Source: Candidatus Saganbacteria bacterium
Lineage (GTDB): Bacteria; Margulisbacteria; WOR-1; XYC2-FULL-46-14; XYC2-FULL-37-10
Length of the DNA: 64,000 nt
Direction of reading: 5' to 3'
Assembly (NCBI GenBank): GCA_016223245.1
Contig: JACRPL010000021.1
Coordinates: forward strand, 37,725-101,724
Both the position numbers and the translations under genes were made by a program. Numbering within the stretch: position 1 is the first letter of the stretch; every line of letters begins with the position of its first letter. The notes below the pieces were generated by a model, which saw nothing but the letters and a program-made list of their open reading frames with translations, did no database searches and was not told where the DNA came from. This document shows, piece by piece, positions 10,841 through 30,938 of the stretch.

Positions 10841-11366
10841 ATGGTTTCAAAATAGGCGCATCTACTACGAAGATATATTAAGGAAGCTTAACGAAAAGAA
10901 AATTAATTATCTTTTAGTCGGCGGGCTTGCTGTTTCCATGTACAAAGTCCCGCCAAGATTTACTATGGATATTGACCTGATCGTTGAATTTGCCCCCGAA
11001 AATGTTTCAAAATTCATCAAAGTGTTATTGGAGCTTGGCTACAAGCCTAAAGTACCGGTTGATCCGTCGGATTTTGCAGATCCTAAAAAAAGAGAGCAAT
11101 GGATAAAAGAAAAAAATATGAAGGTTTTTGCTTTTACCCACCCGGACAGGGATTATGAGCTTGTCGATGTATTTGTCGATTACCCGATGGATTATAAGGC
11201 GATGGAATCCGAAAAAAAAGTTATTAATGTAAAGGGAATGAAAATATTCGTTCCGAGCAAAAAGCATCTGATCGCCCTAAAGAAAATGGCCGGAAGGCCG
11301 GAAGATCTTGTCGATATTAAAAATTTGGAGGCCTTGCCGGATGACGAGGAGGAAATAAGAGAATGA
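10824..11366 (+). CDS. Nucleotidyltransferase-fold protein (TA-type, AbiEii/DUF6036-like)
   Basis: INYLLVGGLAVSMYKVPPRFTMDIDLIV resembles the minimal NTase G-G...D-x-D core. 180 aa. Overlaps the coaX end. Confidence 0.5.
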   Translation: MNWIFEWFQNRRIYYEDILRKLNEKKINYLLVGGLAVSMYKVPPRFTMDIDLIVEFAPENVSKFIKVLLELGYKPKVPVDPSDFADPKKREQWIKEKNMKVFAFTHPDRDYELVDVFVDYPMDYKAMESEKKVINVKGMKIFVPSKKHLIALKKMAGRPEDLVDIKNLEALPDDEEEIRE

Positions 11367-16814: not shown

Positions 16815-18188
16815 TTATCTTCCGCCGACAACGATCTGGGGAATTCTAATAGTAGGCTGGGCATCGGACACTGGTACATGGTCATATTTGCCGCAGATGC
16901 CGACCTGGAAGCCAAGGTCGGATCCTACCATATCAATAGTTTCTAAAACTCTAGGCCCGTTCCCTGTAAGAATTGCACCACGAACTGGATGCGTAACTTT
17001 TCCGTTCTCGATAAGATAGCCCTCATTTATTTCAAAAACAAAATCGCCATTGGCGACATTTACTTCTCCGCCGCCTATTCGAATAACTAATATTCCATTC
17101 TTTACGGAATCAATTATCTCTTGAGGATCGGAATGGCCTGAAGCGATCATTGTATTTGTCATGCGAGGAACAGGCTTTGTCCTGAATGATTCCCGGCGCC
17201 CATTTCCCGATGATTTTATTCCAAGTTCCCTTGCCGTATACCAATCGCTTAGAAATCCTTTTAGAATTCCATTCTCTATTAGAATGGTCTTTTGTGCAGG
17301 GGTTCCTTCATCATCAAATGCAGCTGATCCAAATTTTTGAGGAAGGGTAGTGTCGTCAATTACAGTTATAAGCGGGCTTGCGACGAATTTTCCAAGCTTC
17401 CCGTTGAAAATAGATGTTCCTTTCATAATAAAATCCGCTTCAAGCGAATGTCCGCATGCTTCATGAATTAATGTTCCGCCGGCTTCAGATGATAATACCG
17501 CCATCATTTTGCCTGATGGAGCATGAGGCGCATCAAGCATAAGCACAGCTCTTTTTGCAGCTTTACCCGCCATTTCAGCCGGAGGATAAATATCAAATAG
17601 TTCAAAACCGACAGATCCTCCAGGAGCTTCATATCCGGTTTGGAGCACTCCGTTCTTTTCGGCTATGACATTAATAAAATATCTTGAGCGGATGCGATTG
17701 TCTTCTATATATATGCCTTCAGAATTAGCGATCGTCACCGCTTGGTTTGTGTCGGAATATCTAACTGTTACTTGTTTTATCTTTGGGCCGAACGATCTTG
17801 CGGTTTTATTTAATATATCGACCATGCCGATCTTTTCATCTAGTACGATCAGGTTAGGCCTTTTAAGGATTGAACTCATTTGTTCAGGGATATTGGGAAC
17901 AATATCTTTTATTTTTTTTGGTTCGCCTTTGATCGATTGAGCGATCTTCTGCGCGGCGGATATTAGCCCCTCATAACTTGTATCAGTTGATGCTATGTAT
18001 GAAACTTCTTTATTTGAAATAAGGCGGATACCTGCGCCAATATCCGTGCCTGAGATTATCTTTTCTATTTTATTATCTTCGCAGGAAACGGTTGTCGCGT
18101 TCGATTCTTCAATAAAGACCTCGGCGAGATCCCCGCCGTTTTTGAGGGCGGTAGATAGAATTTCTTCAAGATTATTGAGAGAAAGCAT
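16815..18188 (-). CDS. tldD: Metalloprotease TldD
   Basis: 457 aa with the TldD/PmbA fold signature and HEACGHSLEADF metal site. Confidence 0.88.
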   Translation of the reverse strand: MLSLNNLEEILSTALKNGGDLAEVFIEESNATTVSCEDNKIEKIISGTDIGAGIRLISNKEVSYIASTDTSYEGLISAAQKIAQSIKGEPKKIKDIVPNIPEQMSSILKRPNLIVLDEKIGMVDILNKTARSFGPKIKQVTVRYSDTNQAVTIANSEGIYIEDNRIRSRYFINVIAEKNGVLQTGYEAPGGSVGFELFDIYPPAEMAGKAAKRAVLMLDAPHAPSGKMMAVLSSEAGGTLIHEACGHSLEADFIMKGTSIFNGKLGKFVASPLITVIDDTTLPQKFGSAAFDDEGTPAQKTILIENGILKGFLSDWYTARELGIKSSGNGRRESFRTKPVPRMTNTMIASGHSDPQEIIDSVKNGILVIRIGGGEVNVANGDFVFEINEGYLIENGKVTHPVRGAILTGNGPRVLETIDMVGSDLGFQVGICGKYDHVPVSDAQPTIRIPQIVVGGR

Positions 18189-18532
18189 CAGTTAGAGGTT
18201 AAGACTTTTTCTTCTATATGTTTGATTCTTTCTTCATGGTTCTCAAGCTTGACTTCTTGTCGGCGGGATTGAGCATATGACATCTTTTGTTCAATGGACA
18301 GATCTTCAAGTTTTTTCATTATTTTATCTTGGCTTGTGAGGATATCGTTTTTTAATTCTGATTTTAAGCTATTAAGACCGGTTTGAAGTTCCTGTTTTGT
18401 GGCAAATATTGCAGAAAACTTAATAATAATGTTTTCAATGTCTTTTTTTGTGATTACCATATTAAGAATATTATATATATCCAGCTTATTAATTGCAACA
18501 TGAAATTTTAATTCTTCTTTCGCCTGCTGCAA
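18188..18532 (-). CDS. Hypothetical coiled-coil protein
   Basis: 114 aa, heptad-rich (ELQTGLNSLKSELKNDILTSQDKIMKKLEDL). Its TGA shares one base with the tldD ATG. Confidence 0.4.
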   Translation of the reverse strand: MQQAKEELKFHVAINKLDIYNILNMVITKKDIENIIIKFSAIFATKQELQTGLNSLKSELKNDILTSQDKIMKKLEDLSIEQKMSYAQSRRQEVKLENHEERIKHIEEKVLTSN

Positions 18533-18634: not shown

Positions 18635-19393
18635 TTGATCAATACGAATTTATATATTAAACCCGGGCAGTTAAGACCCTTAGGGCTTGGAAAAGTTGAA
18701 CAGAGAATGGTACTAAATGTTGTAAATGGAATTGGGCGCCTCGAAAGCCGTTTTCTTTTGCTTTTCCATATATTTTATTTCAGCAAGGGCAAAATGGATG
18801 TTTGCCAGCATGCAGCTTTCGCGTTATCGCGAGTGCTTGGAGCAAGATATGATCTTCCGGTGTCCAACACTTTGAAGCCAAATATTGATCATATAGAAAT
18901 AGCAGTCGGGGTATTTGCTCCGCAGGATCTTTCGAGATCCTTTCATCAGACATTTTTAAAAGTGTTTCTTAAAGGCAAGACATTTTACCTCGATCCAACC
19001 CTTAAGTATTTAGAGGAGGATGTCCCATCGATCATTTTGCGCGAATATCCGGCTGGCGAATTCGACAGCCGCCTTCAAAATGAATTCATGATAGAACCGT
19101 ACGCTCCAAACCATCGTGCTTATGCGCACCGTGCCATAATTGCAAGCCAGTACCTTGATCTCGGAAGCCGTGCAAAATACGTTGAGGCATCGTTACGATT
19201 GCTGCATGATCCAAAACTGGTCGTTGATGTTGACCAACGCGAAGCGATATATTTCAGCCAGGATGACTGGACTAGACTTGATAGGATAATAAGAGCTATT
19301 GAACCAAAGGGAGGCCTTCCTTCTATTGAAACACAAGTTGAACAATTATCTGGTGATGAACTTTTGCGCTGGAGTGTATTTGGCGGCATTTAG
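18635..19393 (+). CDS. Hypothetical protein, possible transglutaminase-like/papain-like Cys-His-Asp fold
   Basis: 252 aa. Ordered candidate triad: C in KMDVCQHAAFALSRVLG, H in IDHIEIAVGVF, D in TFYLDPT. Start uncertain (TTG 18635 or ATG 18707). Confidence 0.45.
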   Translation: MINTNLYIKPGQLRPLGLGKVEQRMVLNVVNGIGRLESRFLLLFHIFYFSKGKMDVCQHAAFALSRVLGARYDLPVSNTLKPNIDHIEIAVGVFAPQDLSRSFHQTFLKVFLKGKTFYLDPTLKYLEEDVPSIILREYPAGEFDSRLQNEFMIEPYAPNHRAYAHRAIIASQYLDLGSRAKYVEASLRLLHDPKLVVDVDQREAIYFSQDDWTRLDRIIRAIEPKGGLPSIETQVEQLSGDELLRWSVFGGI

Positions 19394-19399
19394 TCCAGC

Positions 19400-22180
19400 T
19401 CACTTCGCTTCCGCCCAGTTCTCCCCAACTCCAATATCAATTTTTAGAGGGACAGAAAGCTTTAAGGCATTCTGCATTTCATCTTGGATGATCTTTTTAA
19501 CTTTATCGACTTCAGAATTCGGGACTTCGAAGACCAATTCGTCGTGGACCTGCAGGATCATTTGACATTTGACACTTGACATTTGACATTTGCGATGGAT
19601 ATTTACCATCGCTAACTTTATCATATCGGCTGCGGTTCCTTGGACTGGAGTATTTATAGCCGTTCTCTCGGCAAAACCTCTCATTCCTTGATTGGGAGAA
19701 TTAATATCGGGTAGGGGGCGTTTTCGCCCAAGCATCGTTGTTACAAATCCTGTATCTTTAGCATCTTTAATAGTTTTTTCTATAAAAGCCTTTATGCCGG
19801 GATATCTTTTGAAATATTTTTCAATAAATTGCTCGGCTTCCGTTCTTTTGATCTTTAAACTTTTAGCCAAGCCAAAACCGGATATCCCGTAAATGATCCC
19901 AAAATTAACTGTTTTAGCGCTTGATCTCATTTCTTTTGTAACTTTATCAAGAGGTACATTGAAGATATCGGCAGCCGTTGCAGTATGGATATCTTCATCC
20001 AATTTGAAAGCCTCAATAAATTTTTCATCTTGTGAAAGATGCGCGAGAACCCTTAATTCAATTTGAGAATAATCGGCCGCAATTATCTTATATCCTTTAT
20101 TTTGCGGGACAAATGCTTCTCTTACTCTTTTTCCAAGTTCGGATTTTACGGGAATATTCTGCATATTTGGATTTGAGCTCGATAACCTGCCTGTCGCAGT
20201 GATCGTTTGGTTGAAATTTGCATGAACGCGTCCGGTTTCTTTATTTATTAGTTCCGGCAAAGTATCAACGTAGGTTGATTTGAGTTTGTTCAATCCTCGA
20301 TATTCCAGAAGTTTTTCAGCGATCTCAAATTGGCCGGACAATTCTTCCAATACTTCCGCATCTGTTGAAGCGCCTGTTTTTGTTTTCTTAATTATGGGCA
20401 GCTTTAGTTTCTCAAATAAAACTACAGCCAATTGCTTTGGAGAGTTCAAATTGAAAACTTCTCCGCATATGGCAAAGATGTGCCGCTCAAGATCTTTCAT
20501 TGCAAGTTCGATCTCTTGGCTAAGTTTCTTTAAGTATTTGGCATCGATGAAAACACCTGTCTCTTCCATTTTGATCAACACATCAAGCAATGGCATCTCA
20601 ATTTTGTTAAAGACATCCTCCATATTTTCCGACTTGAGAGTTTTCTCAAAGACTTCTTTTAACCCGCGAGTCACATCGGCATCCGAACATGCGTAATCTT
20701 TCGCGACATCTATCGGAACTGTTGCGAAGTTGCCTTCAGACCCAAGTTCATCGAAGTTTATCATTTCTGTTCGGCCAAGATACTGCGCGCCGACTTTCTT
20801 TAAACTATACCTGCCGATAGTCGGGTCGATCAAATATGCGGCTACCATGGTGTCGAAATAGGGTGACGATACTTCAATATCGTATTTTTTCATCACCTCG
20901 ACGTCGTACTTTAAATTATGTCCGATCTTGAGCTTGGTTTTATCTTCAAAAATCGGTTTTAGCGCAGTTAATGCCATTTTAATATTAACTTGCGGCTGAA
21001 CGCCGCGGTTAATGCTTTTGGAACCGCGAGCCGTGCCTACCGGCAGGCAGGGTTCACTCGCAGGTTCCACCTTGTGCCCAAAAGGCAAATAAAAAGCTTC
21101 GCTTTCGTCAATTGAAAAAGATATACCTATAAGATTTGCTTTGAAAGTATTGAGGCTGTCTGTCTCGGTATCAAAGGCAAAAGACTCGCATTCTTTTAAT
21201 TTATGGATTAGGTTTTGATAATGATTATCATTATCAATTAGCTTGAAGTTGAATTTCGAAATTTCTTTCCTTTTTGTCTCAACCTTGTCGAATAGATTGG
21301 GGGTTTGATGCTCCTTGTATTTGTTTATCAGAGTCTTGAATTCCATTCGTTCGAAGAATTTAATGACTTTTTCCCAGTCCGGGGTTTGAGTTGATGTGAA
21401 ATCGGTTTCGAGTGGTACGTCAGTTATAATCGTTACCAGCATTTTGCTCAAATGCGCTTTTTCTTGTTCGTTCAATAATGTTTCGCGAAGCTTTGGCTTT
21501 TCGATATCTTTGGCATGAGCTAATAAATTATCAAGTGTATGATATTTTTTTAATAGTTCAGCGGCTGTTTTATCTCCGATCCCGGGCATTCCCGGGACAT
21601 TGTCAGATGTATCGCCTTTTAAAGCTTTAAAATCAATTAATTGGTTTGGTTTGAGGCCATATCTTTCCTCAACTGCTTTTTCGTCATAGATAACTATGTC
21701 GGAGATCCCTTTCCTGGTAGTCATTACTTTTATTTTCTCTGTTACAAGCTGTAATGCGTCGCTGTCGCCTGTTACTATTTCTACTTCAAAGCCTTCTTTT
21801 TCTGCCTTCTTGGCCAAAGTTCCTATGAGATCGTCGGCTTCAAAGCCTACTAATTCATAGATCGGGATATTTAGGTCTTCGACCAGTTCTTTTATATACG
21901 GAAATTGAGGATGGAGGGTGGGAGGCGCTTTATCTCTTGTTCCCTTGTATTCTTTGTATTTTATATGGCGGAAGGTCGGTTCTTTCCTGTCGAAAGCGAC
22001 TGCAATATAATCCGGTTTTTCCTCGACAAGCTTTAGGATCATCGAAGTGAAGCCATATATGGCATTAGTTACTATGCCTTCGGAGTTCTTCATGGTGTCT
22101 GGAAGCGCATAAAAAGCGCGGTAGGCAAGCGAGTTGCCGTCGATCAGGATTGCTTTAGGGTTGTATAAAGATTTGACCAA
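19400..22180 (-). CDS. polA: DNA polymerase I
   Basis: 926 aa with 5'-nuclease (ILIDGNSLAYRAFYA), 3'-5' exonuclease and polymerase domains (RRSAKTVNFGIIYG-type motif B, QVHDELVFE motif C). The TTG start abuts the HEPN stop. Confidence 0.95.
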   Translation of the reverse strand: MVKSLYNPKAILIDGNSLAYRAFYALPDTMKNSEGIVTNAIYGFTSMILKLVEEKPDYIAVAFDRKEPTFRHIKYKEYKGTRDKAPPTLHPQFPYIKELVEDLNIPIYELVGFEADDLIGTLAKKAEKEGFEVEIVTGDSDALQLVTEKIKVMTTRKGISDIVIYDEKAVEERYGLKPNQLIDFKALKGDTSDNVPGMPGIGDKTAAELLKKYHTLDNLLAHAKDIEKPKLRETLLNEQEKAHLSKMLVTIITDVPLETDFTSTQTPDWEKVIKFFERMEFKTLINKYKEHQTPNLFDKVETKRKEISKFNFKLIDNDNHYQNLIHKLKECESFAFDTETDSLNTFKANLIGISFSIDESEAFYLPFGHKVEPASEPCLPVGTARGSKSINRGVQPQVNIKMALTALKPIFEDKTKLKIGHNLKYDVEVMKKYDIEVSSPYFDTMVAAYLIDPTIGRYSLKKVGAQYLGRTEMINFDELGSEGNFATVPIDVAKDYACSDADVTRGLKEVFEKTLKSENMEDVFNKIEMPLLDVLIKMEETGVFIDAKYLKKLSQEIELAMKDLERHIFAICGEVFNLNSPKQLAVVLFEKLKLPIIKKTKTGASTDAEVLEELSGQFEIAEKLLEYRGLNKLKSTYVDTLPELINKETGRVHANFNQTITATGRLSSSNPNMQNIPVKSELGKRVREAFVPQNKGYKIIAADYSQIELRVLAHLSQDEKFIEAFKLDEDIHTATAADIFNVPLDKVTKEMRSSAKTVNFGIIYGISGFGLAKSLKIKRTEAEQFIEKYFKRYPGIKAFIEKTIKDAKDTGFVTTMLGRKRPLPDINSPNQGMRGFAERTAINTPVQGTAADMIKLAMVNIHRKCQMSSVKCQMILQVHDELVFEVPNSEVDKVKKIIQDEMQNALKLSVPLKIDIGVGENWAEAK
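19559..19592. repeat. Dispersed oligo-repeat, GACAAATGTCAAAT family, in frame inside polA
   Basis: catttgacatttgacacttgacatttgacatttg encodes (minus strand) KCQMSSVKCQM, directly before the conserved ILQVHDELVFE motif. Confidence 0.8.
21020..21068. repeat. CCTGCC/GGCAGG-type palindromic element in frame inside polA
   Basis: ggaaccgcgag-ccg-tgcct-accggc-aggca-gggttca-ctcgc-a-ggttcc, three nested stems. Encodes VEPASEPCLPVGTARGSKS between the exonuclease motifs. Confidence 0.7.
22095..22159. repeat. 65-bp direct repeat, copy 1 (codons 2-23 of the original polA, now in the live gene)
   Basis: 60 of 65 nt are identical to 23100-23164. Confidence 0.9.
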
Positions 22181-22582
22181 TTATAAAAACTCTTTAATTC
22201 GTTTTTTTAATAACAGGGCTAATTTCTTTGTTGTCTTAATAACTTTTTTTAATTCTTCCGAGGTAATGTCTTCTCCTGGATACCTAAAACCAACGGCATA
22301 GGGATTTAATATCTTGAATTCAGAATATATTCCATACAAAAATGGGTCTTTTGGCTGGAGCAGTTTTAATAATTCAATTAGGTCATGTGTTTTAGGGAAT
22401 AATATCTCATGGCTGAGAAGTAATGTTTTTAGGTATTTTTCGATTGCTTGCTGGCAATGGAAAGCAATGATATAGAATGTTTTCTTTTTGCTTTTGTTTT
22501 TATTTAATGTTAACGCGGCTTCTAAGTCTCCCTCAGCCTTATCCTCCCACTCAATAACCAAGGATTTACTTGGATGAATCAT
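22181..22582 (-). CDS. HEPN-domain toxin (HepT-like) of an MNT/HEPN module
   Basis: 133 aa all-helical protein with QQAIEKYLK, KTHDL and RYPG motifs typical of HEPN. Overlaps the MNT gene by 17 nt. Confidence 0.75.
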   Translation of the reverse strand: MIHPSKSLVIEWEDKAEGDLEAALTLNKNKSKKKTFYIIAFHCQQAIEKYLKTLLLSHEILFPKTHDLIELLKLLQPKDPFLYGIYSEFKILNPYAVGFRYPGEDITSEELKKVIKTTKKLALLLKKRIKEFL

Positions 22583-22931
22583 ATAAGACTTTGCCCTTAT
22601 TTATTATTTCATGATAAAAAGGATCTCCCATTTTAAGTCGTTTTTTTACTTCACTAGGAGTTTTGATTAAGATGTCCATTGGAAAAAGATGCTCGATGTG
22701 TCGAGTTGCCCATGAATAACGCTTCATACCTTTCAACCTTGTATCTTTTATGAACAATAAATCAACATCGCTATCTTTGTTGGGATTTCCATAAGCATAT
22801 GATCCAAAAAGAATAACCTTTTCCGGTTTTATACTCTCCGCCGCAGTTTTAATTACTTTTGTTAGCTGCCGCTTAAAAAGTCGTTGCTTTGTCATAGTTG
22901 TTTGCCTTGTGAATATTATAGCATGAAACAT
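22566..22931 (-). CDS. Minimal nucleotidyltransferase antitoxin (MntA-like)
   Basis: GSYAYGNPNKDSDVDLLF is the classic GSx10DxD MNT motif. The likely true start is Met13 (22895), downstream of a TGcTATAAT box. Confidence 0.8.
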   Translation of the reverse strand: MFHAIIFTRQTTMTKQRLFKRQLTKVIKTAAESIKPEKVILFGSYAYGNPNKDSDVDLLFIKDTRLKGMKRYSWATRHIEHLFPMDILIKTPSEVKKRLKMGDPFYHEIINKGKVLYDSSK

Positions 22932-22940
22932 AAAATAGCA

Positions 22941-22967
22941 TTGACATTTTCTGGGGGGGGGTAGAAT
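22941..22967 (+). promoter_or_regulatory. Promoter-like TTGACA-N15-TAGAAT with a G9 homopolymer in the spacer
   Basis: TTGACA 22941-46, TAGAAT 22962-67. The spacer ttttct+GGGGGGGGG (G-run 22953-22961) is 2 nt shorter than optimal. Confidence 0.35.
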
Positions 22968-23025
22968 AAAAAAACAGAATATCAGAAGATCAGAGCGTCG
23001 GAATATAAATAGGAGGTGAAAAATT

Positions 23026-23151
23026 ATGTCAGAAATTTTAGGTTCCAGTTTTCACAAACCTGATCCGAGGAAATCGGCCAACTTTAAAGAGACTGCTGTG
23101 TGTCTGGAAGCGCGTAAAAAGCGAGATAGGCAAGCGAGTTGCCGTCGATAA
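23026..23151 (+). CDS. Small ORF (41 aa) with a consensus Shine-Dalgarno, antisense to the polA fossil
   Basis: AGGAGGTG lies 7 nt before the ATG. Encodes MSEILGSSFHKPDPRKSANFKETAVCLEARKKRDRQASCRR. Hand-translated. Coding status uncertain. Confidence 0.25.
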   Translation: MSEILGSSFHKPDPRKSANFKETAVCLEARKKRDRQASCRR

Positions 23152-23167
23152 GAATTGCTTTAGGCAT
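23084..23167 (-). pseudogene. polA: Fossil 5' end of polA (27 codons then stop), left behind by the cassette insertion
   Basis: Minus strand ATG CCT AAA GCA ATT... gives MPKAILIDGNSLAYLAFYALPDTQQSL*. Located 25 nt downstream of the tsf stop. Confidence 0.7.
23100..23164. repeat. 65-bp direct repeat, copy 2 (in the fossil polA start)
   Basis: Five differences from 22095-22159. Four are synonymous in the polA frame. Confidence 0.9.
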
Positions 23168-23192
23168 TGAACCTATTTTATCACAAAATAGA

Positions 23193-23795
23193 TTACGACT
23201 TCTCGCCTAGTTGGTATCTTGTAAATCGCCTTACAACGATGTTTTCGCCGATCTTTGCGGATAGTTCGCCTAAAAGGTCCTTTATCTTGACTTTTGGATC
23301 CTTGATAAAAGCCTGGTCCATTAAGCATACTTCTTCGTAAAACTTCTCGAGGCGTCCGATCATGATCTTTTCCATGGCGGCCGCAGGCTTCTTTTCCGTT
23401 TCTGCCTGTTTGAGCAATACTTCTTTCTCATGTTCTATCGAGGCTTCGGGAACTTCGCTTCTTGTGATATATTGCGGATTCTGCGCGGCTATTTGCATCG
23501 AGACGTCTTTTGCGAAATTATGGAAATCGGAATTCTTGGCGACGAAATCCGTTTCGCAATTGAGTTCGAGCAATACTCCAAGTTTTCCACCCATATGTAT
23601 GTAAGAGTTGATAATCCCTTGTGCGGCAACACGTTTCGCGCGTTTGGCAACAGATGCCAAACCTTTTTGCCTCAAAAGATCGACAGCTTGATCAATGTTG
23701 CCTTTGGTCTCGACCAAAGCTTTCTTGCAATCCATCATCCCGCAGCCTGTCTTTTCCCTTAGCTGTACGATTATTTCAGTTGTGATGTCGCCCAT
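23193..23795 (-). CDS. tsf: Elongation factor Ts (short form)
   Basis: UBA-like N-terminus LREKTGCGMMDCKKALVE and the EF-Ts core. 200 aa. Confidence 0.93.
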   Translation of the reverse strand: MGDITTEIIVQLREKTGCGMMDCKKALVETKGNIDQAVDLLRQKGLASVAKRAKRVAAQGIINSYIHMGGKLGVLLELNCETDFVAKNSDFHNFAKDVSMQIAAQNPQYITRSEVPEASIEHEKEVLLKQAETEKKPAAAMEKIMIGRLEKFYEEVCLMDQAFIKDPKVKIKDLLGELSAKIGENIVVRRFTRYQLGEKS

Positions 23796-24665
23796 TTAAA
23801 ATCCAACCCTTTCTTCGGTTTCTTTTTCTTTGACCAATACTTTAGGAGCAAGTTCCGCCAGCCTTTCTTCTTCGCTTAACATCATAGCTTCTTCCATGGT
23901 GGTTTCTTCTGTTTCGGCAGGCTTTGCTTCTCCTTCTTCCGCGGGAACGGCAATTTCTATAGTTCTTTCTTCGATCGGTTTGCCCATTTCACGGCCTGCA
24001 ATAACTGCTTCAGCGACGATTGCTGTCAATAACTTGATCGAGCGGATAGCGTCGTCATTTGCCGGAATAGGGAAGTCGACAACATCAGGATCGCAGTTTG
24101 TATCGACTACAGCGACAACTGGGATGTCTAGCCTTTTTGCTTCGGCGATCGCCGTTGCTTCTTTTTGCGAGTCTACGATAAATATGACGCTTGGAGGATT
24201 GACCATTTCACGGATACCGCCAAGGCCTCGGACTAGCTTCCCGTATTCTCGTTCAATACCTGCAACTTCTTTTTTCGGTAACTTTTCATAAGTGCCGTCA
24301 GTCTTCATTTTTTCAATTTCTTTCATACGGACGATGTTCTTCTTTAATGTTTTGAAATTGGTGAGTGTTCCGCCAAGCCATCTGTCCCTGACATAGAACA
24401 TGCCGCAGCGTTTTGCTTCTTCTTCGATAGCGTCCTGGGCTTGTTTCTTTGTTCCTACAAATAAAACAGTACCGTTGTCTTTTACCGCGTTCTTGATGAA
24501 ATCACATGCTTTTTCGATCAACGGAATGGTCTTGTGAAGGTCGATAACATGGATGTTATTTCTCGACGAATAAATATACTTTCCCATTTTTGGATTCCAA
24601 CGTTTACTTTGGTGCCCGAAATGAACCCCCGCTTCGAGCAACTCTTTCATGGTTACTACTGGCAT
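23796..24665 (-). CDS. rpsB: 30S ribosomal protein S2 with an acidic C-terminal tail
   Basis: [19 protein letters not shown] and the rest of the S2 fold. Abuts tsf. Confidence 0.95.
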
Positions 24666-24911
24666 TGCTTCCTCCTTAAATTATTAGGTCTATAGTTTTT
24701 CAAGCAGACAAACAATAATTTTATCACAGAATTGGCTTTTTTGCCAATGAAATTTGGACGGGATTGGACGATAATAACATAGAGAGCTCCGAAAAATTTG
24801 CAAGATAAAAAATATAGCAATTAATATGGTTGTTTTTTAAATCTGCCTGCCTTGGCTCGATCTTATAGCGTTCTCCTTTCATCACGATTTCATATTCCTC
24901 AAACCTGCGCT

Positions 24912-24929
24912 CGGCAGGATATCCTGCCG
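24912..24929. repeat. Perfect 18-nt palindrome of the CCTGCC/GGCAGG family (intergenic)
   Basis: cggcaggatatcctgccg, with ctgcctgcc also at 24843-24851. Confidence 0.7.
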
Positions 24930-25229
24930 GGCAAAAAAGGATTGATCATTTTGCCGACAATCTTTTTTTTCCTCATTTTTTTGTTTTTTCCCTTCTTCGT
25001 CAAAATACTCATCTTTCCTTTCTTCCAATATCCTGTCCAGGCTACCAGACAATAAGGAAAGGTTCCATCAGTCGCTTGATAACAAAACTCCTTGGCAGGT
25101 TTACTGCGGAGGGATCGTTGAAGGCTATGAAGTCCAGCCTTTAATGAGTGAGGTTTTCTATCTTAATTGTAGCAAGGAATTGGTCTTGACAAACCCGACC
25201 ACTTCACTTGGGGCATTAAAAAGGTAGGA

Positions 25230-25832
25230 TTATTTAACTAAAGCCATTCTGGACCAAAATGCAACGGCTCGCGCATATGCTTTAAGATCAATTGGCACAG
25301 GATTCGCAACTCCTCCAAAGTCTATTCCCAAACCATTTCTTAAAATCGTAATCGGCAGCATCGGTTCTTCTTTGCAGCCTGTAATGCCATTAATTGAAAT
25401 GATTCCCCAATTGGAATCAGCTGGATCAATTGCCTCGCCTTCAGTTTTAAGTTCTTCACTTGTATAAAGAATGATATCTAAATACGGCGCCTTGGGAGGG
25501 ACAACATCAGCTGAATCGAACCATCTTGTAAGTACTGGAAGCTCTTCCGTCTTGCGCGCAACATAACCCGTTTTAATAAATTTTTCATTGGCAGCCGTTA
25601 TTTCAACGACCCCGGCTCTTGCATCCGTAAAGTTCTCAAGAAATAAATGCGCGCAAAAAGAGACATAACCTGGCGTTAGCGATTTTCCTTGAGCCAATTG
25701 GTTCGCTTTATTCGTAAAAGCATTAGAATCTATATTACCAATTTTTGTTCCAGGAAATTCCGGGTTAAAATGCCTTCCTGCAGCAAACTGGGTCATTCCA
25801 ATTTTTATCATATTTCCAGCGGCAACATCCAT
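25230..25832 (-). CDS. Hypothetical 200-aa protein (DUF3228-like, from memory), translationally coupled to the 1091-aa gene
   Basis: ATG lies 2 nt after the upstream stop, with AGGAGG embedded in the upstream gene's 3' end. No catalytic motif recognised. Confidence 0.5.
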   Translation of the reverse strand: MDVAAGNMIKIGMTQFAAGRHFNPEFPGTKIGNIDSNAFTNKANQLAQGKSLTPGYVSFCAHLFLENFTDARAGVVEITAANEKFIKTGYVARKTEELPVLTRWFDSADVVPPKAPYLDIILYTSEELKTEGEAIDPADSNWGIISINGITGCKEEPMLPITILRNGLGIDFGGVANPVPIDLKAYARAVAFWSRMALVK

Positions 25833-25834
25833 TT

Positions 25835-28800
25835 TTATCTCCTCCTTGATAATTGCGACAACAAGTATGTTCCCATTTGTTCTTTTGCCCTAAGGATCCT
25901 AGGGTTCGTCCCTAGTTCTGCATCAGCCAACGTTTCCCCTTCTTTCCCTGGGATATCCGAAAAATAACCCATCATTGAAACTGACAAAGATGGCTTAGCG
26001 CCAAGACCTCTAACAAGCGGCCCCATTTCAAGTTCAACAGAAGTTGCCTTTCTTCCCATAAGGTCCGCAAGAAAAGCATCATGTTCTTGTAAAGGAGAAT
26101 CTACATAGCCCGCATGTGTTGTCAGGACAAATCTTATGGCACTATCTCCTGCTTTACTATCTGTGCCTCCAGCCAAATCAACAACTTCTTGCCTTTGAGC
26201 TAAAGCATAGGAAACAACATCATTGACAAAGCCATTAGCCTCTCCTTTTTCTTCAAGCATCGTACTTGGGACAAATAGATCCCCGACATTTATTTCTGTT
26301 TGATTTTGGCCCGCTCCGGCGATAAAACCGCCATTTCCAAAAAACGTCACATTTTCGACATTCTCTTCGGCAACTGCTTGCCCTAAATAACCTGATAAGC
26401 TCCCAAAAGGAATTGTTACCATAAGGAATGGCGCTTTCCCCGGCAATCTTATTAAACTTGCCTGGTAAACATCATTAGGCACGCGGGCTTTCATGCTTTC
26501 CGGTTTCAACTTCTCTGGCAATATAAAAGGAGGGTTTCTATTCATCCCAAGCTTCGCATAAACGCCTTCAAGCTTGTCTCTAAGCGCCAATAGCCTTGCA
26601 GCAAGGTTAGGATTAAGCATTATTTCTTCAGGATCTAGTGAAAAAGCCGCCGTCAAATTCGTTTTATCATCAAAAATTTGTCCAATGATTTTTGGCGTAA
26701 GCACTCTGATCTCAGCTTGAATATTTGGGATAGCTTGTTCTATCTCTTCATTTTGAGCAGTTTCATAGCTTTCAATTAAAATAATACCAAATTCCGCAAG
26801 AAGTTTTAAGCATTGTTTTATTCTCTTAATAAATACATTTTTCATCTCTTGCGCCGGTATTTTTGGATTGTTTTTTGTAAACGAGCCATAATCAAGGTTT
26901 GCCGCCAATTCCTCCAATTTCATATTAACTGCTCGGCTTAGATCTGCCTCAACTTCATTAAGCAATTCTTCGCCTTTCAACCCTGGTTTAAGGAAAGCAG
27001 CTAATACTCTTGCGGCATTTATCCTCTCTGCTAAAATATAGCTTATCGTTCCCCCTGGACCAACAACTACCATTTTTGGGAATTTGCCATTGTTTTTGCT
27101 TTTGGTTGCGGCAATCAAATTTTTGGCGTCCACCATATAATCTTCAGAATAGACATGATGGTATATTTTTTCAACGGATAATCCCGCATAAGTTAGATAC
27201 AGCCTCATATGCATCAATTTTGTTTCGCCAAGAATATTAACAACAATAAATTGATTAGTCCCTTTTACCCTATACCAATGCTGCTTAACGCCGTCTTCTG
27301 TTCTTTCTACCGCAAGCCGCTCCAATTGTGAACGTTTATCGGTGATATATTGCATGCTTGTAGAAAGCGGGCCATGATGCAATTCAATTGAAACAAATTT
27401 ACCTTCATCCAATAGGTCCAATGCGGCTTTTGGGATTCTGGGGATAAGATATTCAGGCAAATTCAATGAATGCCTGCGATACATTGCGACCCCTTGGCGC
27501 ACGTTTTCGATAACAGGCATTCTGCCGATAGCAGATACAATATCGTCAATTGAAAGCGATGTTTTTCTTTGTTCTGCCGGAAGCTCTTTTGGGAACATAG
27601 GAGATCCTCCCGCCTTTGAAAATCCGCCCCAACCCTTTCGCAGCTCCGAAAAGCCCAGTGTTGCTCTCTTTTTCTTTTCCTCTTGGCCTAACTTTTCCCA
27701 TAAATTTGTAAGGTCTATCTCGACTTCAAGCGAAGAATTCGGGTCGATCCCGACCATATATTCATATCCCATATTGCATTCAGCGTCATATGAGATGGCA
27801 AGATGTATCTGGTCCTTCGCGGCCCTTTTTCGGTTATACCCTTCCATGAACGCATATATCCCCCTGCGACTGACAACTTTTTTCCATTCAACATCCCCTC
27901 TCCAAGGATGTTTCACAATAATGGTATTTCCTCGAATTTCAACGCTTGTGTTGTTTGAATCATTTATCGCTTGAGCTAAATATTCGACTTCTCTTTCCAA
28001 TACTTCCCGCGCTCCTCTGTAAATCGCCAAATAACCATTAGGGAGGGTCGCTTCATGTTCTAGGCTATCAAGTATGCGGCAAAGATCTGAAAATACATTA
28101 TCTCTTAACACGGGGAATGCGGCTGCGCAACTTGTATGATAATCTTTGATCTCGAGGAATTTACCCCTTTCCAAAGAATACATTTCTTCAAGCAATAGCA
28201 TAAGTTTTCCGCCATCGGAACGGACGGATCCTTTCTGAAGATCAGATAGGTCCGAAGCTTCTAGTAATATTTTTTTCTGCCCTTCGCTTAAATAAAGCGC
28301 CAATCCAGGATTACATAACAGCCACTGTTCAATAAACGCATAACAATCGGAATAAACTTTAATTTTTCGGCCGTTTAAGGATTCCCTTTGAAGTGTTTCA
28401 AGTTTTTCGGTTGCTTCCATTATTTCTTTTGTTTGCGTAGTATCTTTATGCGGCAGGAAAAGGAAATCCTTTAATTCTGCCAATCGCTTCTGAATTGTTT
28501 CTCCGTTCATCCCGCGATTCTTTAATATAGCAGCAACCGGTTCACCAATATTTTTATCAAAATCAATATTATATCGTAAGGTAACCATAGACATTAATAT
28601 CCCTTGTTCAAGATTATCCGCAATTATTGGGACTAATTTATCAATATCGCTTGTGTCTACAAATAAAGCTTCTGGTTTTGAGTCAATGATCGTGCGCTGT
28701 CCGGCAAGAGATTGAGAAGGTTGGCTAACAGCCATTGCGCATGCAGCAGGGTTCGAAACGCCTGAAAGATCCAATGAATATACTGCTCCACAGAAAAATA

Positions 28801-29110
28801 CATCAATATTATTTCGCCCAAAATCCCTGCGATCGACCAAAACGACTGCAGTTTTCGATCTGCCGATTCTCATTGTTACAAGGCTAAGGTTTCGCAATTC
28901 TAATTCTTGAGGCGATAAATTTCCTTGTAATATGCTAGCGCGAAGATCTGTTTCAAGTGCAACAGTTGCTAATGCAGCTTCGCTAAAAGCATGTTTTTTT
29001 AATGCCAGCAAAGCACTTGCGCTATGCATTAAGGGAGCCAAATGTGATTTTTGCATTAGGGCTAAAGGGGTCAATTTTTGTGCGGTTGGGCCAACTACTT
29101 GAATATTCAC
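25835..29110 (-). CDS. 1091-aa orphan protein with a nucleoside phosphorylase/nucleosidase-like C-terminal domain
   Basis: Uninterrupted ORF with GGAGG 9 nt before the GTG start. The last ~250 aa show PNP/UDP/MTAN-like motif order (FLMVTIPFG, FFGNGGFIAG, VGDLFVPS, SVELEMGP, GYFSDIP). The rest is unassigned. Confidence 0.6.
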   Translation of the reverse strand: MNIQVVGPTAQKLTPLALMQKSHLAPLMHSASALLALKKHAFSEAALATVALETDLRASILQGNLSPQELELRNLSLVTMRIGRSKTAVVLVDRRDFGRNNIDVFFCGAVYSLDLSGVSNPAACAMAVSQPSQSLAGQRTIIDSKPEALFVDTSDIDKLVPIIADNLEQGILMSMVTLRYNIDFDKNIGEPVAAILKNRGMNGETIQKRLAELKDFLFLPHKDTTQTKEIMEATEKLETLQRESLNGRKIKVYSDCYAFIEQWLLCNPGLALYLSEGQKKILLEASDLSDLQKGSVRSDGGKLMLLLEEMYSLERGKFLEIKDYHTSCAAAFPVLRDNVFSDLCRILDSLEHEATLPNGYLAIYRGAREVLEREVEYLAQAINDSNNTSVEIRGNTIIVKHPWRGDVEWKKVVSRRGIYAFMEGYNRKRAAKDQIHLAISYDAECNMGYEYMVGIDPNSSLEVEIDLTNLWEKLGQEEKKKRATLGFSELRKGWGGFSKAGGSPMFPKELPAEQRKTSLSIDDIVSAIGRMPVIENVRQGVAMYRRHSLNLPEYLIPRIPKAALDLLDEGKFVSIELHHGPLSTSMQYITDKRSQLERLAVERTEDGVKQHWYRVKGTNQFIVVNILGETKLMHMRLYLTYAGLSVEKIYHHVYSEDYMVDAKNLIAATKSKNNGKFPKMVVVGPGGTISYILAERINAARVLAAFLKPGLKGEELLNEVEADLSRAVNMKLEELAANLDYGSFTKNNPKIPAQEMKNVFIKRIKQCLKLLAEFGIILIESYETAQNEEIEQAIPNIQAEIRVLTPKIIGQIFDDKTNLTAAFSLDPEEIMLNPNLAARLLALRDKLEGVYAKLGMNRNPPFILPEKLKPESMKARVPNDVYQASLIRLPGKAPFLMVTIPFGSLSGYLGQAVAEENVENVTFFGNGGFIAGAGQNQTEINVGDLFVPSTMLEEKGEANGFVNDVVSYALAQRQEVVDLAGGTDSKAGDSAIRFVLTTHAGYVDSPLQEHDAFLADLMGRKATSVELEMGPLVRGLGAKPSLSVSMMGYFSDIPGKEGETLADAELGTNPRILRAKEQMGTYLLSQLSRRR

Positions 29111-29162
29111 CTGGTATTTTCCTCCATTGTTTTCCTAGCTATCATGATCATCTCGCTTACTA

Positions 29163-29231
29163 TGAGACCTCTGAAAAATCAACCCATTTTCCCATGGATT
29201 ATCTTTTTCTCTTTGGCCCGCATATATATCG
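29163..29231 (-). promoter_or_regulatory. Conserved leader element, copy Y (upstream of the 1091-aa gene)
   Basis: The reverse complement matches 18551-18618 at 67 of 68 nt. Weaker similarity continues about 15 nt further toward the gene. Confidence 0.8.
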
Positions 29232-29263
29232 ACAGCCCCCACCGAAGATTTCACTATGGAACA

Positions 29264-29297
29264 AACTATTTCCCAACTATTTTCCCAACTATTTCAA
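29264..29297. repeat. Three tandem 11-12-nt direct repeats (AACTATTT(T)CCC)
   Basis: aactatttccc aactattttccc aactatttcaa. They straddle the stop of the ARH gene, upstream of leader copy Y. A related ccaaccaactatttt occurs at 30875-30889. Confidence 0.65.
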
Positions 29298-30878
29298 ATG
29301 GATACGAGATAATTGATCTGCATAAGCGCTGATTTCTCTGTGTTCAATAAGCCCTTCGATCCATTCATTTGGTATTACTGTTAATCCATTATGTGCTGCG
29401 CTTATTGCTCCAGCTAATCCTGCAATGCTATCGGAATCTCCTTGCGTATTGACCCCGGCAATAATTGTTCTTCTAAAATCCGGTAAGCTTTTCAAAAAGC
29501 AATAAATTGCCGATGGAACCACTCCAAGCGCTTTCATTCCAGTTTTGACTTTTTTCCCATCAATGTTGCTTGGGATTTGGTTTAAACCATCTTCTGTAGA
29601 TACTTGCATCAATGACGGCAATCTTCTTATTTCAAATGCCATTTTTGGACTTTCATTTTCTATATATTGCGCCGTTCTTTCAACAATTCCCTCTACTGAA
29701 TCCGGAAGCCGGCTTAAACGACCTTGATTAATAAGATATGCGATCGCCAAAGCGCCGCCGAGCGCTTCCTTGCCTGTTTTTGTGATCAATGTTACAGCTC
29801 CTACGCTTTTTCTTAGCAATGCAAGGTCATCAATAATTAAGCCCAAGGGCACAACTGCGGTTGCCGGCCCACAGCCGTCGCTTTGGTTTGCCGCTAACCG
29901 CCAATTTAGCCCCGCATATAACCTTCTATAAGATGTAAGAGTACTATTAGAATAACCGACATTCCTGGTCAAGCCCATGTCAAGCTTTAAACCAAAAGCC
30001 GCAAAAATTCCGGCCATGTCGTTTGGATCGATCTTTCCAGTGCGAATGATCGACTTGGCAACCATAAGGGCCATTTGGGTATCATCCGTATAATCGCCGG
30101 GAAATAATGGGCGCACAGGATCTTTCAAAAAACCGTCTACATATCCTATCCGTCTGATTTCTTCAAGCGATGAAAATTCTACTGGCGCTCCCATCGCATC
30201 GCCTATTGCTTCGCCAAATAAAACAGCTCGATGAATATCGAAAGAAGTTGGACTCGACAATTCGACATTCACCTGCGCTTTTGGATAAAGAAAAGAAAAG
30301 GACGTTTCTCTTATCGACAAAGCGGCATCCTCTTCAAACTCCTTTATTAAATTCAAATCACCGAATCTGCCCAACATGTGTACCGCAAGATTCTTTATTG
30401 CTTCAGGGCCTTGAAGTCCTGTTTTTATTAAGGGTACGATTCCGGAAACAATTCTTTGCATTTGCATTATTGAAGCAAGCATCCAGTTTTCGGATTTTTG
30501 CGTTCGCAGCAATCTCCCGAGTTCAGCAATATATTTATGGGGATCAGACGCTCCCAAGGAAAGGGCGGAAAACCAGCGGACTTGGCCATCGGGATCTTGA
30601 AGCATTGTTTTCAATGTTGCGGCCGCTTGTTCCTGCTCAACCCAAGCCATCATTTTTTTTGATGTTTCCCTTCGGACTCTTGAGCTTGGATCAGAGCTCA
30701 AAGGTAATATTGCCGCAAGATCTTGTGCCGCTCGAATAGAAGAAAGCTTCGCCTCAATAATAGGATTAGCTCTATAATAAGTTCTTAGCATTGCGCTTTT
30801 TGCGCAAGATGCATATATTTGCATGTGTTTGGCCTCACATATATATCGGCCCCCCTCATCGAAAATTTCATTTTCCAA
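29289..30878 (-). CDS. HEAT-repeat / ADP-ribosylglycohydrolase fusion protein
   Basis: N-terminal HEAT-like repeats (DPSSRVRRE, DPDGQVRWFSALSLG). ARH domain motifs GDAMGAPVEF, DYTDDTQMAL, GDSDSIAGLAGAISAA. The real start is probably ATG 30824 (GAGG Shine-Dalgarno) rather than TTG 30878. Confidence 0.8.
   Translation of the reverse strand: MENEIFDEGGRYICEAKHMQIYASCAKSAMLRTYYRANPIIEAKLSSIRAAQDLAAILPLSSDPSSRVRRETSKKMMAWVEQEQAAATLKTMLQDPDGQVRWFSALSLGASDPHKYIAELGRLLRTQKSENWMLASIMQMQRIVSGIVPLIKTGLQGPEAIKNLAVHMLGRFGDLNLIKEFEEDAALSIRETSFSFLYPKAQVNVELSSPTSFDIHRAVLFGEAIGDAMGAPVEFSSLEEIRRIGYVDGFLKDPVRPLFPGDYTDDTQMALMVAKSIIRTGKIDPNDMAGIFAAFGLKLDMGLTRNVGYSNSTLTSYRRLYAGLNWRLAANQSDGCGPATAVVPLGLIIDDLALLRKSVGAVTLITKTGKEALGGALAIAYLINQGRLSRLPDSVEGIVERTAQYIENESPKMAFEIRRLPSLMQVSTEDGLNQIPSNIDGKKVKTGMKALGVVPSAIYCFLKSLPDFRRTIIAGVNTQGDSDSIAGLAGAISAAHNGLTVIPNEWIEGLIEHREISAYADQLSRIHLK
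30828..30864 (-). promoter_or_regulatory. Partial third copy (Z) of the leader 5' module, at the 5' end of the ARH gene
   Basis: Minus strand tttcgatgaggggggcCGATATATATGTGAGGCCAAA aligns with copy Y tcttcggtgggggctgtCGATATATATGCGGGCCAAA. Confidence 0.6.
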
Positions 30879-30938
30879 CCAACTATTTTGGAAAATATAA
30901 GTGTTGACTCTTTAACCTTCCCCGCCTAAAATCAAATC

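Follow-up and report, generated by a model that had tools for sequence, protein, structure and literature searches.

An MNT-HEPN cassette between a live and a fossil copy of the polA 5' end in a Saganbacteria genome

Organization of the locus

The window, by which we mean the whole analysed 64-kb stretch of contig JACRPL010000021.1 of a Candidatus Saganbacteria bacterium, originates from a groundwater metagenome, and all coordinates without a locus name are window positions. It contains a two-gene cassette, encoding a minimal nucleotidyltransferase (MNT) and a HEPN-domain protein, directly upstream of polA, the gene for DNA polymerase I (Pol I). On the minus strand, the order is rpsB, tsf, a 25-nucleotide (nt) spacer, a short open reading frame (ORF) with an ATG start that we call the fossil polA start, about 190 nt of non-coding sequence, MNT, HEPN, and the live polA. 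The first gene of the rpsB-tsf-polA array, rpsB (23796-24665), encodes ribosomal protein S2 (Pfam Ribosomal_S2, E = 8e-96) and is followed by tsf (23193-23795), which encodes elongation factor Ts (Pfam EF_TS, E = 2e-40). The same rpsB-tsf order is present in the related loci L002-L006, L175, L176, and L178. The live polA (19400-22180) encodes a protein of 926 amino acids with the Pfam domains 5_3_exonuc_N, 5_3_exonuc, DNA_pol_A_exo1, and DNA_pol_A.

The 5' end of polA is present twice, as a 65-nt direct repeat on the minus strand. The left, downstream copy (22095-22159) constitutes codons 8-29 of the live polA, and the right, upstream copy (23100-23164) is part of the fossil. The two copies are identical at 60 of 65 positions (92%), with a longest common run of 23 nt, and differ at repeat positions 12, 15, 39, 41, and 51. 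The corresponding live and fossil codons are ATC/ATT, CTG/CTT, TAC/TAT, CGC/CTC (Arg to Leu), and TAT/TAC. No other pair of direct repeats of at least 35 nt is present within the 64-kb window, and the chance expectation for such pairs is approximately 3e-21. The homology between the copies stops sharply at both ends. Its upstream limit is codon 2 of polA, beyond which the tsf-side and HEPN-side sequences are unrelated. Its downstream limit is a sharp joint between GACAC and ACAGCAG, which cuts a small ORF on the other strand. The 940 nt of DNA between the copies hold MNT, HEPN, and the 41-codon ORF X'. The coordinates, codons, reading frames, and repeat identity given by an earlier reading of the sequence alone (the sequence-only reading), including its assignment of the left copy to codons 8-29, were all confirmed on recheck. 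That reading had also described the cassette as inserted exactly at the polA start codon; the homology does end there, but the start codon is not a cut site.

Integrity of the assembly

Since the source is a metagenome, in which the polA 5' ends of other organisms share short stretches with the repeat, two strain variants with the arrangements tsf-polA and X-cassette-polA could have been joined artificially through their common polA 5' sequence. Extra depth at 23100-23150, which comes from a 7.7-kb contig of another organism, also fits such an artefact. However, a 2524-nt Logan contig, built by another assembler, is 100% identical to positions 21039-23562 and spans both copies of the repeat in one piece. 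The depth of this contig is even at 37.9x, and its neighbouring contigs have depths of 38.7x and 37.2x. The Logan assembly uses words of 31 nt, and the copies, with a longest common run of 23 nt, should therefore not collapse in it. A second sample of the same study (X2) yielded separate small contigs that cross the two junctions, 21854-22189 on the left and 23001-23317 on the right, both free of differences. The loose ends at the repeats are all accounted for by the other copy or by polA of other organisms, and no contig runs from the fossil into the body of polA. In four runs, at the level of contigs, where rare variants can be missed, no contig skips the 1005 nt as an empty site or an excised form would, and none has an alternative junction. 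Other runs that contain the flanks of this strain without the cassette were sought as well; all that came up belonged to the same study, none showed an empty site, and an RNA run with the locus was not found. Mis-assembly of two strain variants, which the sequence-only reading had named as its possible refutation, is contradicted by the even-depth Logan contig and the junction contigs of the second sample. The artefact explanation is largely refuted, and we regard it as highly improbable.

The ancestral tsf-polA junction

The fossil polA start (23084-23167, minus strand) opens with an ATG at 23167-23165, 25 nt past the stop codon of tsf, and continues as an orphaned start of polA (MPKAILIDGNSLAYL). 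The ORF has 27 codons, comprising the ATG, 22 codons of polA, and four foreign codons ahead of the stop, and its translation is MPKAILIDGNSLAYLAFYALPDTQQSL. The N-terminus of the fossil, MPKAILIDG, matches those of PolA proteins from relatives, which begin with MPKAYLIDG, MKAILIDG, or MPPKKAILIDG. Leu15 of the fossil stands in place of an Arg that is invariant in 120 of 120 relatives, in the context SLAYRAFYAL. This Arg and the Asp of the LIDG motif belong to the conserved active-site region of the 5' nucleases of Pol I. The Arg-to-Leu substitution points to decay of the fossil at that site.

Junctions without a cassette are present in relatives. In the Saganbacteria loci L176 and L177, tsf is followed by 17 nt and then by ATGCCTAAAGCA. 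The beginning of their spacer, TAATGTGATA, is alike in the window, where the sequence starts with TAATCTATTTTGTGATA and leads to ATGCCTAAAGCA, and the motif TGTGATA is common to both. The 17-nt spacer of L176, which begins with TAATGTGATACC and leads to ATGCCTAAAGCA, is orthologous to the 25-nt spacer of the window (23168-23192). In a second pair of loci, L178 and L179, the empty junction has a different form, in which the GTG start codon of polA lies inside the last codons of tsf and the genes overlap. The order rpsB-tsf-...-polA is kept in all relatives examined. The empty junctions of L176/L177 and L178/L179, together with the match between the N-termini of relatives and the fossil, indicate that the right copy is the original polA start at the original tsf-polA junction. 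The ancestral arrangement was rpsB-tsf-polA, with the ATG 25 nt after tsf. The claim of the sequence-only reading that the right copy marks the ancestral junction is borne out by these four loci, which are empty sites of the kind it had proposed to look for in related genomes. An empty-site allele of the same species was not found in a search with the PolA N-terminus, which gave nothing above 75% identity.

Within the spacer between tsf and the fossil, an extended −10-like sequence, TGaTAAAAT (23183-23175), is a candidate promoter; it stops 7 nt short of the fossil ATG.

The 5' end of the live polA

The live polA begins with a TTG (22180) directly after the TAA stop codon of HEPN (22183-22181), and the protein starts with MVKSLYNPKAILIDG. 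The TTG and the six codons that follow it (VKSLYN; 22160-22180, minus strand) are a new 5' end contributed by the insert, in agreement with the MVKSLYN N-terminus and the abutting TTG described in the sequence-only reading. Before codon 30, the frame contains no canonical start other than this TTG, and initiation at Met30 would remove the conserved segment LIDGNSLAYRAFYALPD. The N-terminus of the live protein, M-VK-SLY-NPKA, resembles natural PolA N-termini such as VKNPKAYLIDG. The closest PolA relatives are 76% (P0002) and 68% (P0003) identical and belong to Margulisbacteria, candidate division WOR-1, and Saganbacteria. Just past the repeat, the live polA carries the MKNSEG signature of its native clade, as do L002 and L003.

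A consensus scan found no terminator-like or promoter-like site between HEPN and polA. Because of this, and because the TTG touches the stop codon of HEPN, polA is most likely transcribed together with the cassette and translated by termination-reinitiation coupling to HEPN. The transcript would start at the TGcTATAAT box upstream of MNT (22923-22915), farther upstream at rpsB-tsf, or at the TGaTAAAAT box of the fossil.

Genes of the cassette

The MNT gene (22566-22895, minus strand) encodes a protein of 109 amino acids that matches the Pfam families Polbeta (7.9e-12) and NTP_transf_2 (6e-9) and contains a GS-x10-DxD motif (GSYAYGNPNKDSDVD). It matches MntA of known structure (PDB 5yep) with E = 1e-3. 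Against the NCBIfam equivalog NF047752 of MntA, the protein scores 36.6 bits, below the cut-off of 60, and it is assigned to the Polbeta superfamily only. The HEPN gene (22181-22582, minus strand) overlaps with MNT, whose stop codon (22566) lies 17 nt beyond the HEPN ATG (22582). The pair is arranged in the same way in L086, L091, L087, L172, and L175.

The HEPN protein of 133 amino acids matches PF05168 over residues 11-124 with 79 bits (cut-off 22, E = 4e-22). A sequence profile of 36 HEPN homologues matches the proteins with the structures 1wol (1.8e-8), 1ufb (1.2e-7), and 1o3u (7e-5), and sacsin (3o10, 2e-3). In place of the canonical Rx4-6H motif, the protein has R100-YPGE-D105 (R-x4-D), and Arg100, Tyr101, Pro102, His42, and His66 are invariant in the 36 homologues. 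A variant of PF05168 with Asp in place of His and a second conserved His has been described, for which an alternative active site was suggested (PMC3710099). The 133-residue sequence contains no R-x(4-6)-H motif and has no match in NCBIfam or PADLOC. The label of a toxin-antitoxin system, given to the pair in the sequence-only reading, holds at the level of the MNT-HEPN family; however, the canonical Rx4-6H is absent and MNT falls below the MntA cut-off. The cassette thus departs from the characterised HepT/MntA type VII systems in two features that define them. MNT-HEPN pairs are commonly classed and annotated as toxin-antitoxin-like selfish or defence modules, and by family membership, from which its function is predicted, the cassette may be one of them.

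Upstream of MNT lies an extended −10-like sequence, TGcTATAAT (22915-22923, minus strand), which is the candidate promoter of the cassette. The aligned position in L086 and L091 is occupied by TTGTCA-17-TATACT; a consensus scanner passes over the window sequence, which has no −35 element. The segment upstream of the MNT promoter, containing a run of C and a divergent TTGACA, is common to the window and L086 (score 34 versus 17 ± 2.4 for shuffled sequences; 1 of 2000 shuffles reached the score).

ORF X' (23026-23151, plus strand) is divergent from the cassette and was present in the list of ORFs and also called as a gene by Logan. Approximately 25 of its 41 codons are its own, and these are fused to the antisense of the fossil. 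The ORF is preceded by a strong ribosome-binding site, GGAGGTG (23012-23018), and by a promoter-like TTGACA-15-TAGAAT (22941-22967). It has no Pfam match, and a search among 1.8 billion representatives returned only ORF X' itself and low-complexity matches. A gene that neighboured the cassette in the donor and arrived with it, truncated to its 5' end, is the probable source of ORF X'.

In several loci, the ATG of MNT was seen by eye to lie 7-10 nt past a −10-like box (L086 145-176, L091 50-86, L172 1545-1568, and L175 5596-5618). The polA ATG is placed likewise in L002 (5975-6003), L003, and the fossil of the window (23165-23183). This spacing suggests that leaderless or near-leaderless mRNAs occur in these bacteria. 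A reading in which the −10-like boxes common to the region upstream of polA in L002, the region upstream of MNT in L175, and the spacer of the window mark the ends of cassettes, a resemblance noted by eye, is confounded by the promoter consensus.

Distribution of the cassette in related lineages

The comparison is based on approximately ten lineages that were fetched one by one in place of a broad survey of junctions. A search detected 41 homologues of the HEPN protein, with 73% identity for the closest. In L086 (HEPN 73%, MNT 82% identical to the window), MNT-HEPN is followed by 8 nt and the polA ATG (MPKIILIDGNSLVYRAFYALPDT). In L091 (about 60% and 64%), polA has a TTG start that overlaps the 3' end of HEPN. 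L175 (about 59% and 65%) has the order rpsB-tsf, an ORF of 620 amino acids, MNT-HEPN, and polA, again with a TTG that overlaps HEPN. Two further contexts involve other genes. The cassette of L087-L090 and L173-L174 from WOR-1 (L087 4679-5402) abuts the gene of a chorismate-binding enzyme, with the TAG of HEPN followed by the ATG without a gap, and that of L172 (1566-2286) is located between valS and a folC-like gene. In L173 and L174, HEPN is shortened to 99 amino acids and is probably decaying. Four of the six distinct contexts have the cassette directly upstream of polA, and in all six the downstream housekeeping gene either begins within 29 nt of the HEPN stop codon or overlaps HEPN.

The relationships of the cassette and of PolA are incongruent. 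The window and L086 are 82% identical in MNT and 73% in HEPN, whereas the adjacent N-terminal domains of their PolA proteins are only 62% identical. The nearest PolA relatives, L002 (82.5%) and L003 (70%), lack the cassette. Between L086 and L091, the identities of PolA (77%) and of the cassette (74% and 67%) are as expected for co-descent. The GC content of the cassette is 0.338, compared with 0.419 for the window. The incongruence with L086, the cassette-free nearest relatives, and the AT-rich composition indicate that the lineage of the window acquired the cassette secondarily, by transfer rather than by vertical descent. The linkage of the cassette to polA in L086, L091, and L175 shows that donors of this arrangement exist. 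Any two sampled lineages share 42-54 of the 65 positions of the repeat, whereas the two copies in the window share 60; given this difference and the native MKNSEG signature after the repeat, an immediate donor would have to be a close relative.

A metagenome scan with an alignment of PolA N-termini matched generic PolA motifs; among the matches listed, the best were 57-59% identical, and none was near tsf, MNT, or HEPN. A scan of genome contigs with peptides from the 300 N-terminal residues of PolA, those used being poorly conserved, gave one locus from Margulisbacteria (L006) among 80. A scan of viral contigs with the HEPN profile gave one distant match (39% identity) and no sign of a viral vector.

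Origin of the duplication

Capture of the cassette from the DNA of a related genome, by means of homology in the polA 5' coding sequence, is the probable, though far from certain, origin of the locus. The donor would have been a fairly close relative in which MNT-HEPN was already located directly upstream of polA. The incoming piece would have extended from inside the divergent neighbour gene (X'), through the cassette, to approximately the first 29 codons of the donor polA. Its homology to the recipient would have been one-sided, with the conserved polA 5' coding sequence (LIDGNSLAYRAFYALPDT) serving as the anchor of integration. One-sided homology is plausible because the content between tsf and polA differs in every relative and because the divergent ORF at the end of the insert is truncated. 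With the DNA from tsf to the cassette differing between lineages, a clean double crossover is unlikely to have been available. Integration could have occurred by a single crossover of a circularised fragment carrying X', the promoters, MNT-HEPN, and the 5' end of polA, or by homology-facilitated illegitimate recombination if the fragment was linear and had one homologous arm. Either route would duplicate the homologous 65 nt around the 940-nt insert. The native, promoter-proximal start would then have been left beside tsf as the 27-codon fossil and have gained the Arg-to-Leu change since. The live polA would have received the 5' end of the donor, with the TTG right after the HEPN stop codon and the N-terminus MVKSLYN, so that the donor-type allele would run from TTG to VKSLYNPKAILIDG. 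In this arrangement, polA would be transcribed from the promoter of the cassette or by read-through from rpsB-tsf, and its translation would be coupled to termination at HEPN.

The sequence-only reading favoured homology-anchored capture of foreign DNA over a transposon-style duplication, and this preference is supported by the empty junctions, the cassette-polA linkages, the incongruence of cassette and PolA, and the lack of terminal inverted repeats, transposase, and integrase. The ends of the insert do not form terminal inverted repeats (best 13/25), and no transposase, integrase, or recombinase is encoded in the insert or the neighbouring housekeeping genes. A 65-nt duplication with 92% identity is unlike the target duplication of a transposon, and we know of no transposition mechanism that duplicates 65 nt of its target. 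Insertion of a transposon, an insertion sequence, or a miniature inverted-repeat transposable element was rejected because of the absence of inverted repeats and transposase and because the duplication is 65 nt long and only 92% identical. Local alignment gave no support for a derivation of the 21-nt spacer that follows the HEPN stop codon from a tsf 3' end, as in the overlapping junction of L178.

Several observations weigh against the capture of foreign DNA. Neither a donor genome nor a strain of precisely this lineage with an empty site was found; in the databases, PolA identity reaches 76% at most, and the best N-terminal fragments match at 71-75%. The longest identity of 23 nt is marginal for RecA-type recombination, provided that the differences between the copies predate the event. 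The sequence-only reading suggested a search for the same cassette with polA-derived flanks elsewhere; the cassette is indeed located beside polA in L086, L091, and L175, but no flanking duplication is present at the other loci with a visible upstream side, among them L175, L172, and L087. The upstream sides of L086 and L091 lie beyond the contig ends, and fossils could not be seen there. ORF X' is without a homologue, and we infer its status as a truncated donor gene. Co-transcription of polA with the cassette and the use of the TTG are, likewise, predicted from the sequence. Finally, if the copies diverged in situ with selection acting on the live copy only, the probability that at least four of the five differences are synonymous is 0.08-0.13.

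The last of these values bears on an alternative in which the cassette was inserted illegitimately, without homology, for example by repair of a staggered break or by template switching during replication, and the event duplicated 65 nt of the polA of the recipient itself. The differences between the copies would then have arisen later, and selection would have kept the changes in the live copy synonymous. Such a course is not rejected by the synonymous pattern, and it is compatible with copies that are far closer to each other (60/65) than any two lineages are (42-54/65). The substitution of an invariant Arg by Leu is what a drifting fossil would show. Moreover, L002 matches the live copy at all three sites at which it shares the state of one of the copies, which weakly suggests changes in the fossil, although the synonymous sites of the outgroups are saturated. 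However, with all five changes assigned to the fossil, the probability of the pattern decreases to 0.015-0.03. Duplication of recipient DNA would also require a lucky in-frame, stop-free extension of seven codons with a start codon abutting HEPN, whereas fusions of the cassette to polA pre-exist in L091, L175, and L086. It lacks both a mechanism known to us for a 65-nt target duplication and any inverted ends or transposase, and it leaves unexplained why the cassette lies beside polA in lineages whose PolA is far more distant than the cassette. We consider it unlikely. The claim of the sequence-only reading that the copies derive from two functional polA alleles is affected by the same numbers: four of the five differences are synonymous, but this carries little weight by itself at a probability of 0.08-0.13, and the fossil, which has Leu at the invariant Arg, is not just a second functional allele. 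The case for a foreign allele therefore rests on the comparative evidence and on the N-terminus of the live protein.

The repeats could also be the attL and attR sites of an integrative element that targets the 5' end of polA and supplies a substitute gene end, with the 940 nt being its remnant or an integrase-less form mobilised in trans. The anatomy of the locus is formally that of icd and icdC around the element e14 (PMC13626634), and relatives vary in the tsf-polA gap as well as in the operon flanks. Nevertheless, neither the insert nor the neighbouring genes encode an integrase or recombinase, and the cassettes next to the chorismate-binding enzyme gene (L087) and the folC-like gene (L172) have no polA-like sequence or flanking repeats. 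The four runs contain no excised or empty form, and the one relative in viral contigs is distant (39% identity). Site-specific integration is thus a rather improbable explanation of the repeats.

Comparison with known systems

The closest anatomical parallel to the proposed capture is the insertion of e14 or phage 21 in the icd gene of E. coli, where, according to the account of Hill et al. (1989) given in PMC13626634, the element brings a substitute for the end of the gene and leaves the native end behind as the pseudogene icdC. As in icd, the insert in the window supplies the working end of the gene, and the displaced native end is a short pseudogene at the far border. The copies in both systems differ mostly synonymously and, by recombining with each other, would restore the gene as a chimera. 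In contrast, e14 is a 15-kb prophage with its own integrase that replaces the 3' end of icd and has been observed to excise, whereas the insert in the window is 940 nt long, encodes no recombinase, has no excision product that was seen, and replaces the 5' end of polA together with its start codon and promoter.

The proposed routes of integration have precedents. Experiments in E. coli in which a circular molecule carrying a partial homologue recombined with the chromosome by a single crossover gave flanking duplications of 109-950 bp (PMC3240628). Illegitimate recombination facilitated by homology was proposed for the capture of effector-immunity modules of the type VI secretion system at conserved gene ends (PMC5361080), and recombination of the same kind is attributed to de Vries and Wackernagel (2002) and Prudhomme et al. 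(2002) in the citations of PMC3240628 and PMC5361080. Under the proposed capture, the window shares with Campbell-type integration and homology-facilitated illegitimate recombination a one-sided homologous anchor that captures adjacent foreign DNA, and the duplication of the anchor by a single crossover. Unlike in the laboratory events or the displacements of modules at 3' ends, the anchor here is 65 nt in the 5' coding sequence of a gene of the essential type, and the translation start was replaced.

The cassette itself resembles the HepT/MntA type VII systems, such as SO_3165/3166 of Shewanella and HEPN-MNT of Legionella (PMC4621449, PMC11586414), in pairing overlapping genes for an MNT and a HEPN protein under a putative promoter of its own, and in the weak similarity of its MNT to MntA. 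It differs from them in that its HEPN protein belongs to PF05168 ('HEPN-T') and not to HepT/DUF86, and in its R-x4-D motif and the score of its MNT (36.6 bits versus 60). The similarity of the HEPN protein to the solved HEPN-T proteins 1wol, TT1696 (1ufb), and TM0613 (1o3u), and to sacsin, extends over the profile of the whole domain and includes the QQxxEKxxK helix, a conserved His, and the RYP motif. None of these solved proteins has a demonstrated toxin role, and none has been described beside polA.

Implications

The event as reconstructed is of a known kind, homology-anchored capture of a cassette that leaves a gene-end fossil, and involves no new mechanism or system. It provides an unusually clear record, made up of an orphaned start codon, sharp homology boundaries, and a truncated neighbour gene, of the entry of a small selfish or defence-type module without its own recombinase into a housekeeping operon of an uncultured phylum. 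In such a phylum, sequence is the only record from which events of this kind can be read. The recurrence of the coupled MNT-HEPN-polA arrangement among Margulisbacteria offers a lead of modest interest. In several Margulisbacteria, polA appears to occupy the third position in an expressed unit with MNT and HEPN and to begin at a non-ATG start codon coupled to the stop codon of HEPN. For annotation, this means that the polA start may be overlooked or wrongly placed by gene callers, and the coupling bears on how toxin-antitoxin-like cassettes become hard to lose.

A more speculative proposal, which we consider doubtful, is that this family of cassettes has adapted specifically to the position in front of polA in Margulisbacteria, spreads between lineages by way of the polA 5' anchor, and replaces the polA promoter and start codon so that production of Pol I depends wholly on transcription from the cassette and on translation coupled to it. 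The dependence is suggested by the TTG start codons that abut or overlap the HEPN stop codon in the window, L091, and L175. If the proposal is true, loss of the cassette would cost the expression of polA, which would amount to addiction by capture of a housekeeping gene.

Variability of the surrounding region

The gap between tsf and polA is hypervariable in Margulisbacteria, with 17 nt, an overlap, 378 nt, 1.6 kb, 2.7 kb, or 5.4 kb depending on the lineage. The gap of L002 (4376-6000) contains an orphan ORF of 508 amino acids. In L003-L005, the 378-nt gap (L003 5623-6000) holds, on the opposite strand, what remains of a different Polbeta nucleotidyltransferase. The 5.4-kb gap of L006 (1565-7000) consists mostly of orphan ORFs, and that of L175 (3589-6331) contains the ORF of 620 amino acids and the MNT-HEPN cassette. 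The large ORFs of the gaps have no match in Pfam or NCBIfam and are mutually unrelated.

The other flanks of the operon differ as well. In L176 (2615-3384), a different pair, composed of MNT and NTase_sub_bind (PF08780), is located between a yggS-like gene and rpsB, and nothing is present at the corresponding L178 3506-3585. In the window, approximately 6 kb (24666-30938) separate rpsB from the yggS-like gene and encode a DUF3228 protein, an orphan protein of 1091 amino acids, and an ADP-ribosylglycohydrolase/HEAT protein. On the 3' side of polA, the window has two ORFs (18188-18532, 114 amino acids; 18635-19393, 252 amino acids) with no Pfam or NCBIfam match; the relatives have different genes there, with L002 encoding an RRM protein, L003 RelA/SpoT, and L178 an acetyltransferase. 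Farther away, a protein of 180 amino acids (10824-11366) has weak matches to DUF6036, DUF2204, and AbiEii, a toxin-like protein of type IV toxin-antitoxin systems, and may be the product of another toxin-antitoxin-type gene.

The live polA itself contains an in-frame insertion of 23 amino acids (VEPASEPCLPVGTARGSKSINRG) in the 3'-5' exonuclease domain (20990-21085), which its closest relatives lack. The DNA of the insertion forms a strong predicted hairpin (−45 kcal/mol for 101 nt). The word depth of the metagenome at this position is approximately 2350x, compared with about 40x around it, and the Logan contigs break there. The window contains no other copy of the insertion, and a similar stretch is inserted at this site in the PolA protein P0009. 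The insertion looks like a short, widespread palindromic repeat element that entered polA in frame.

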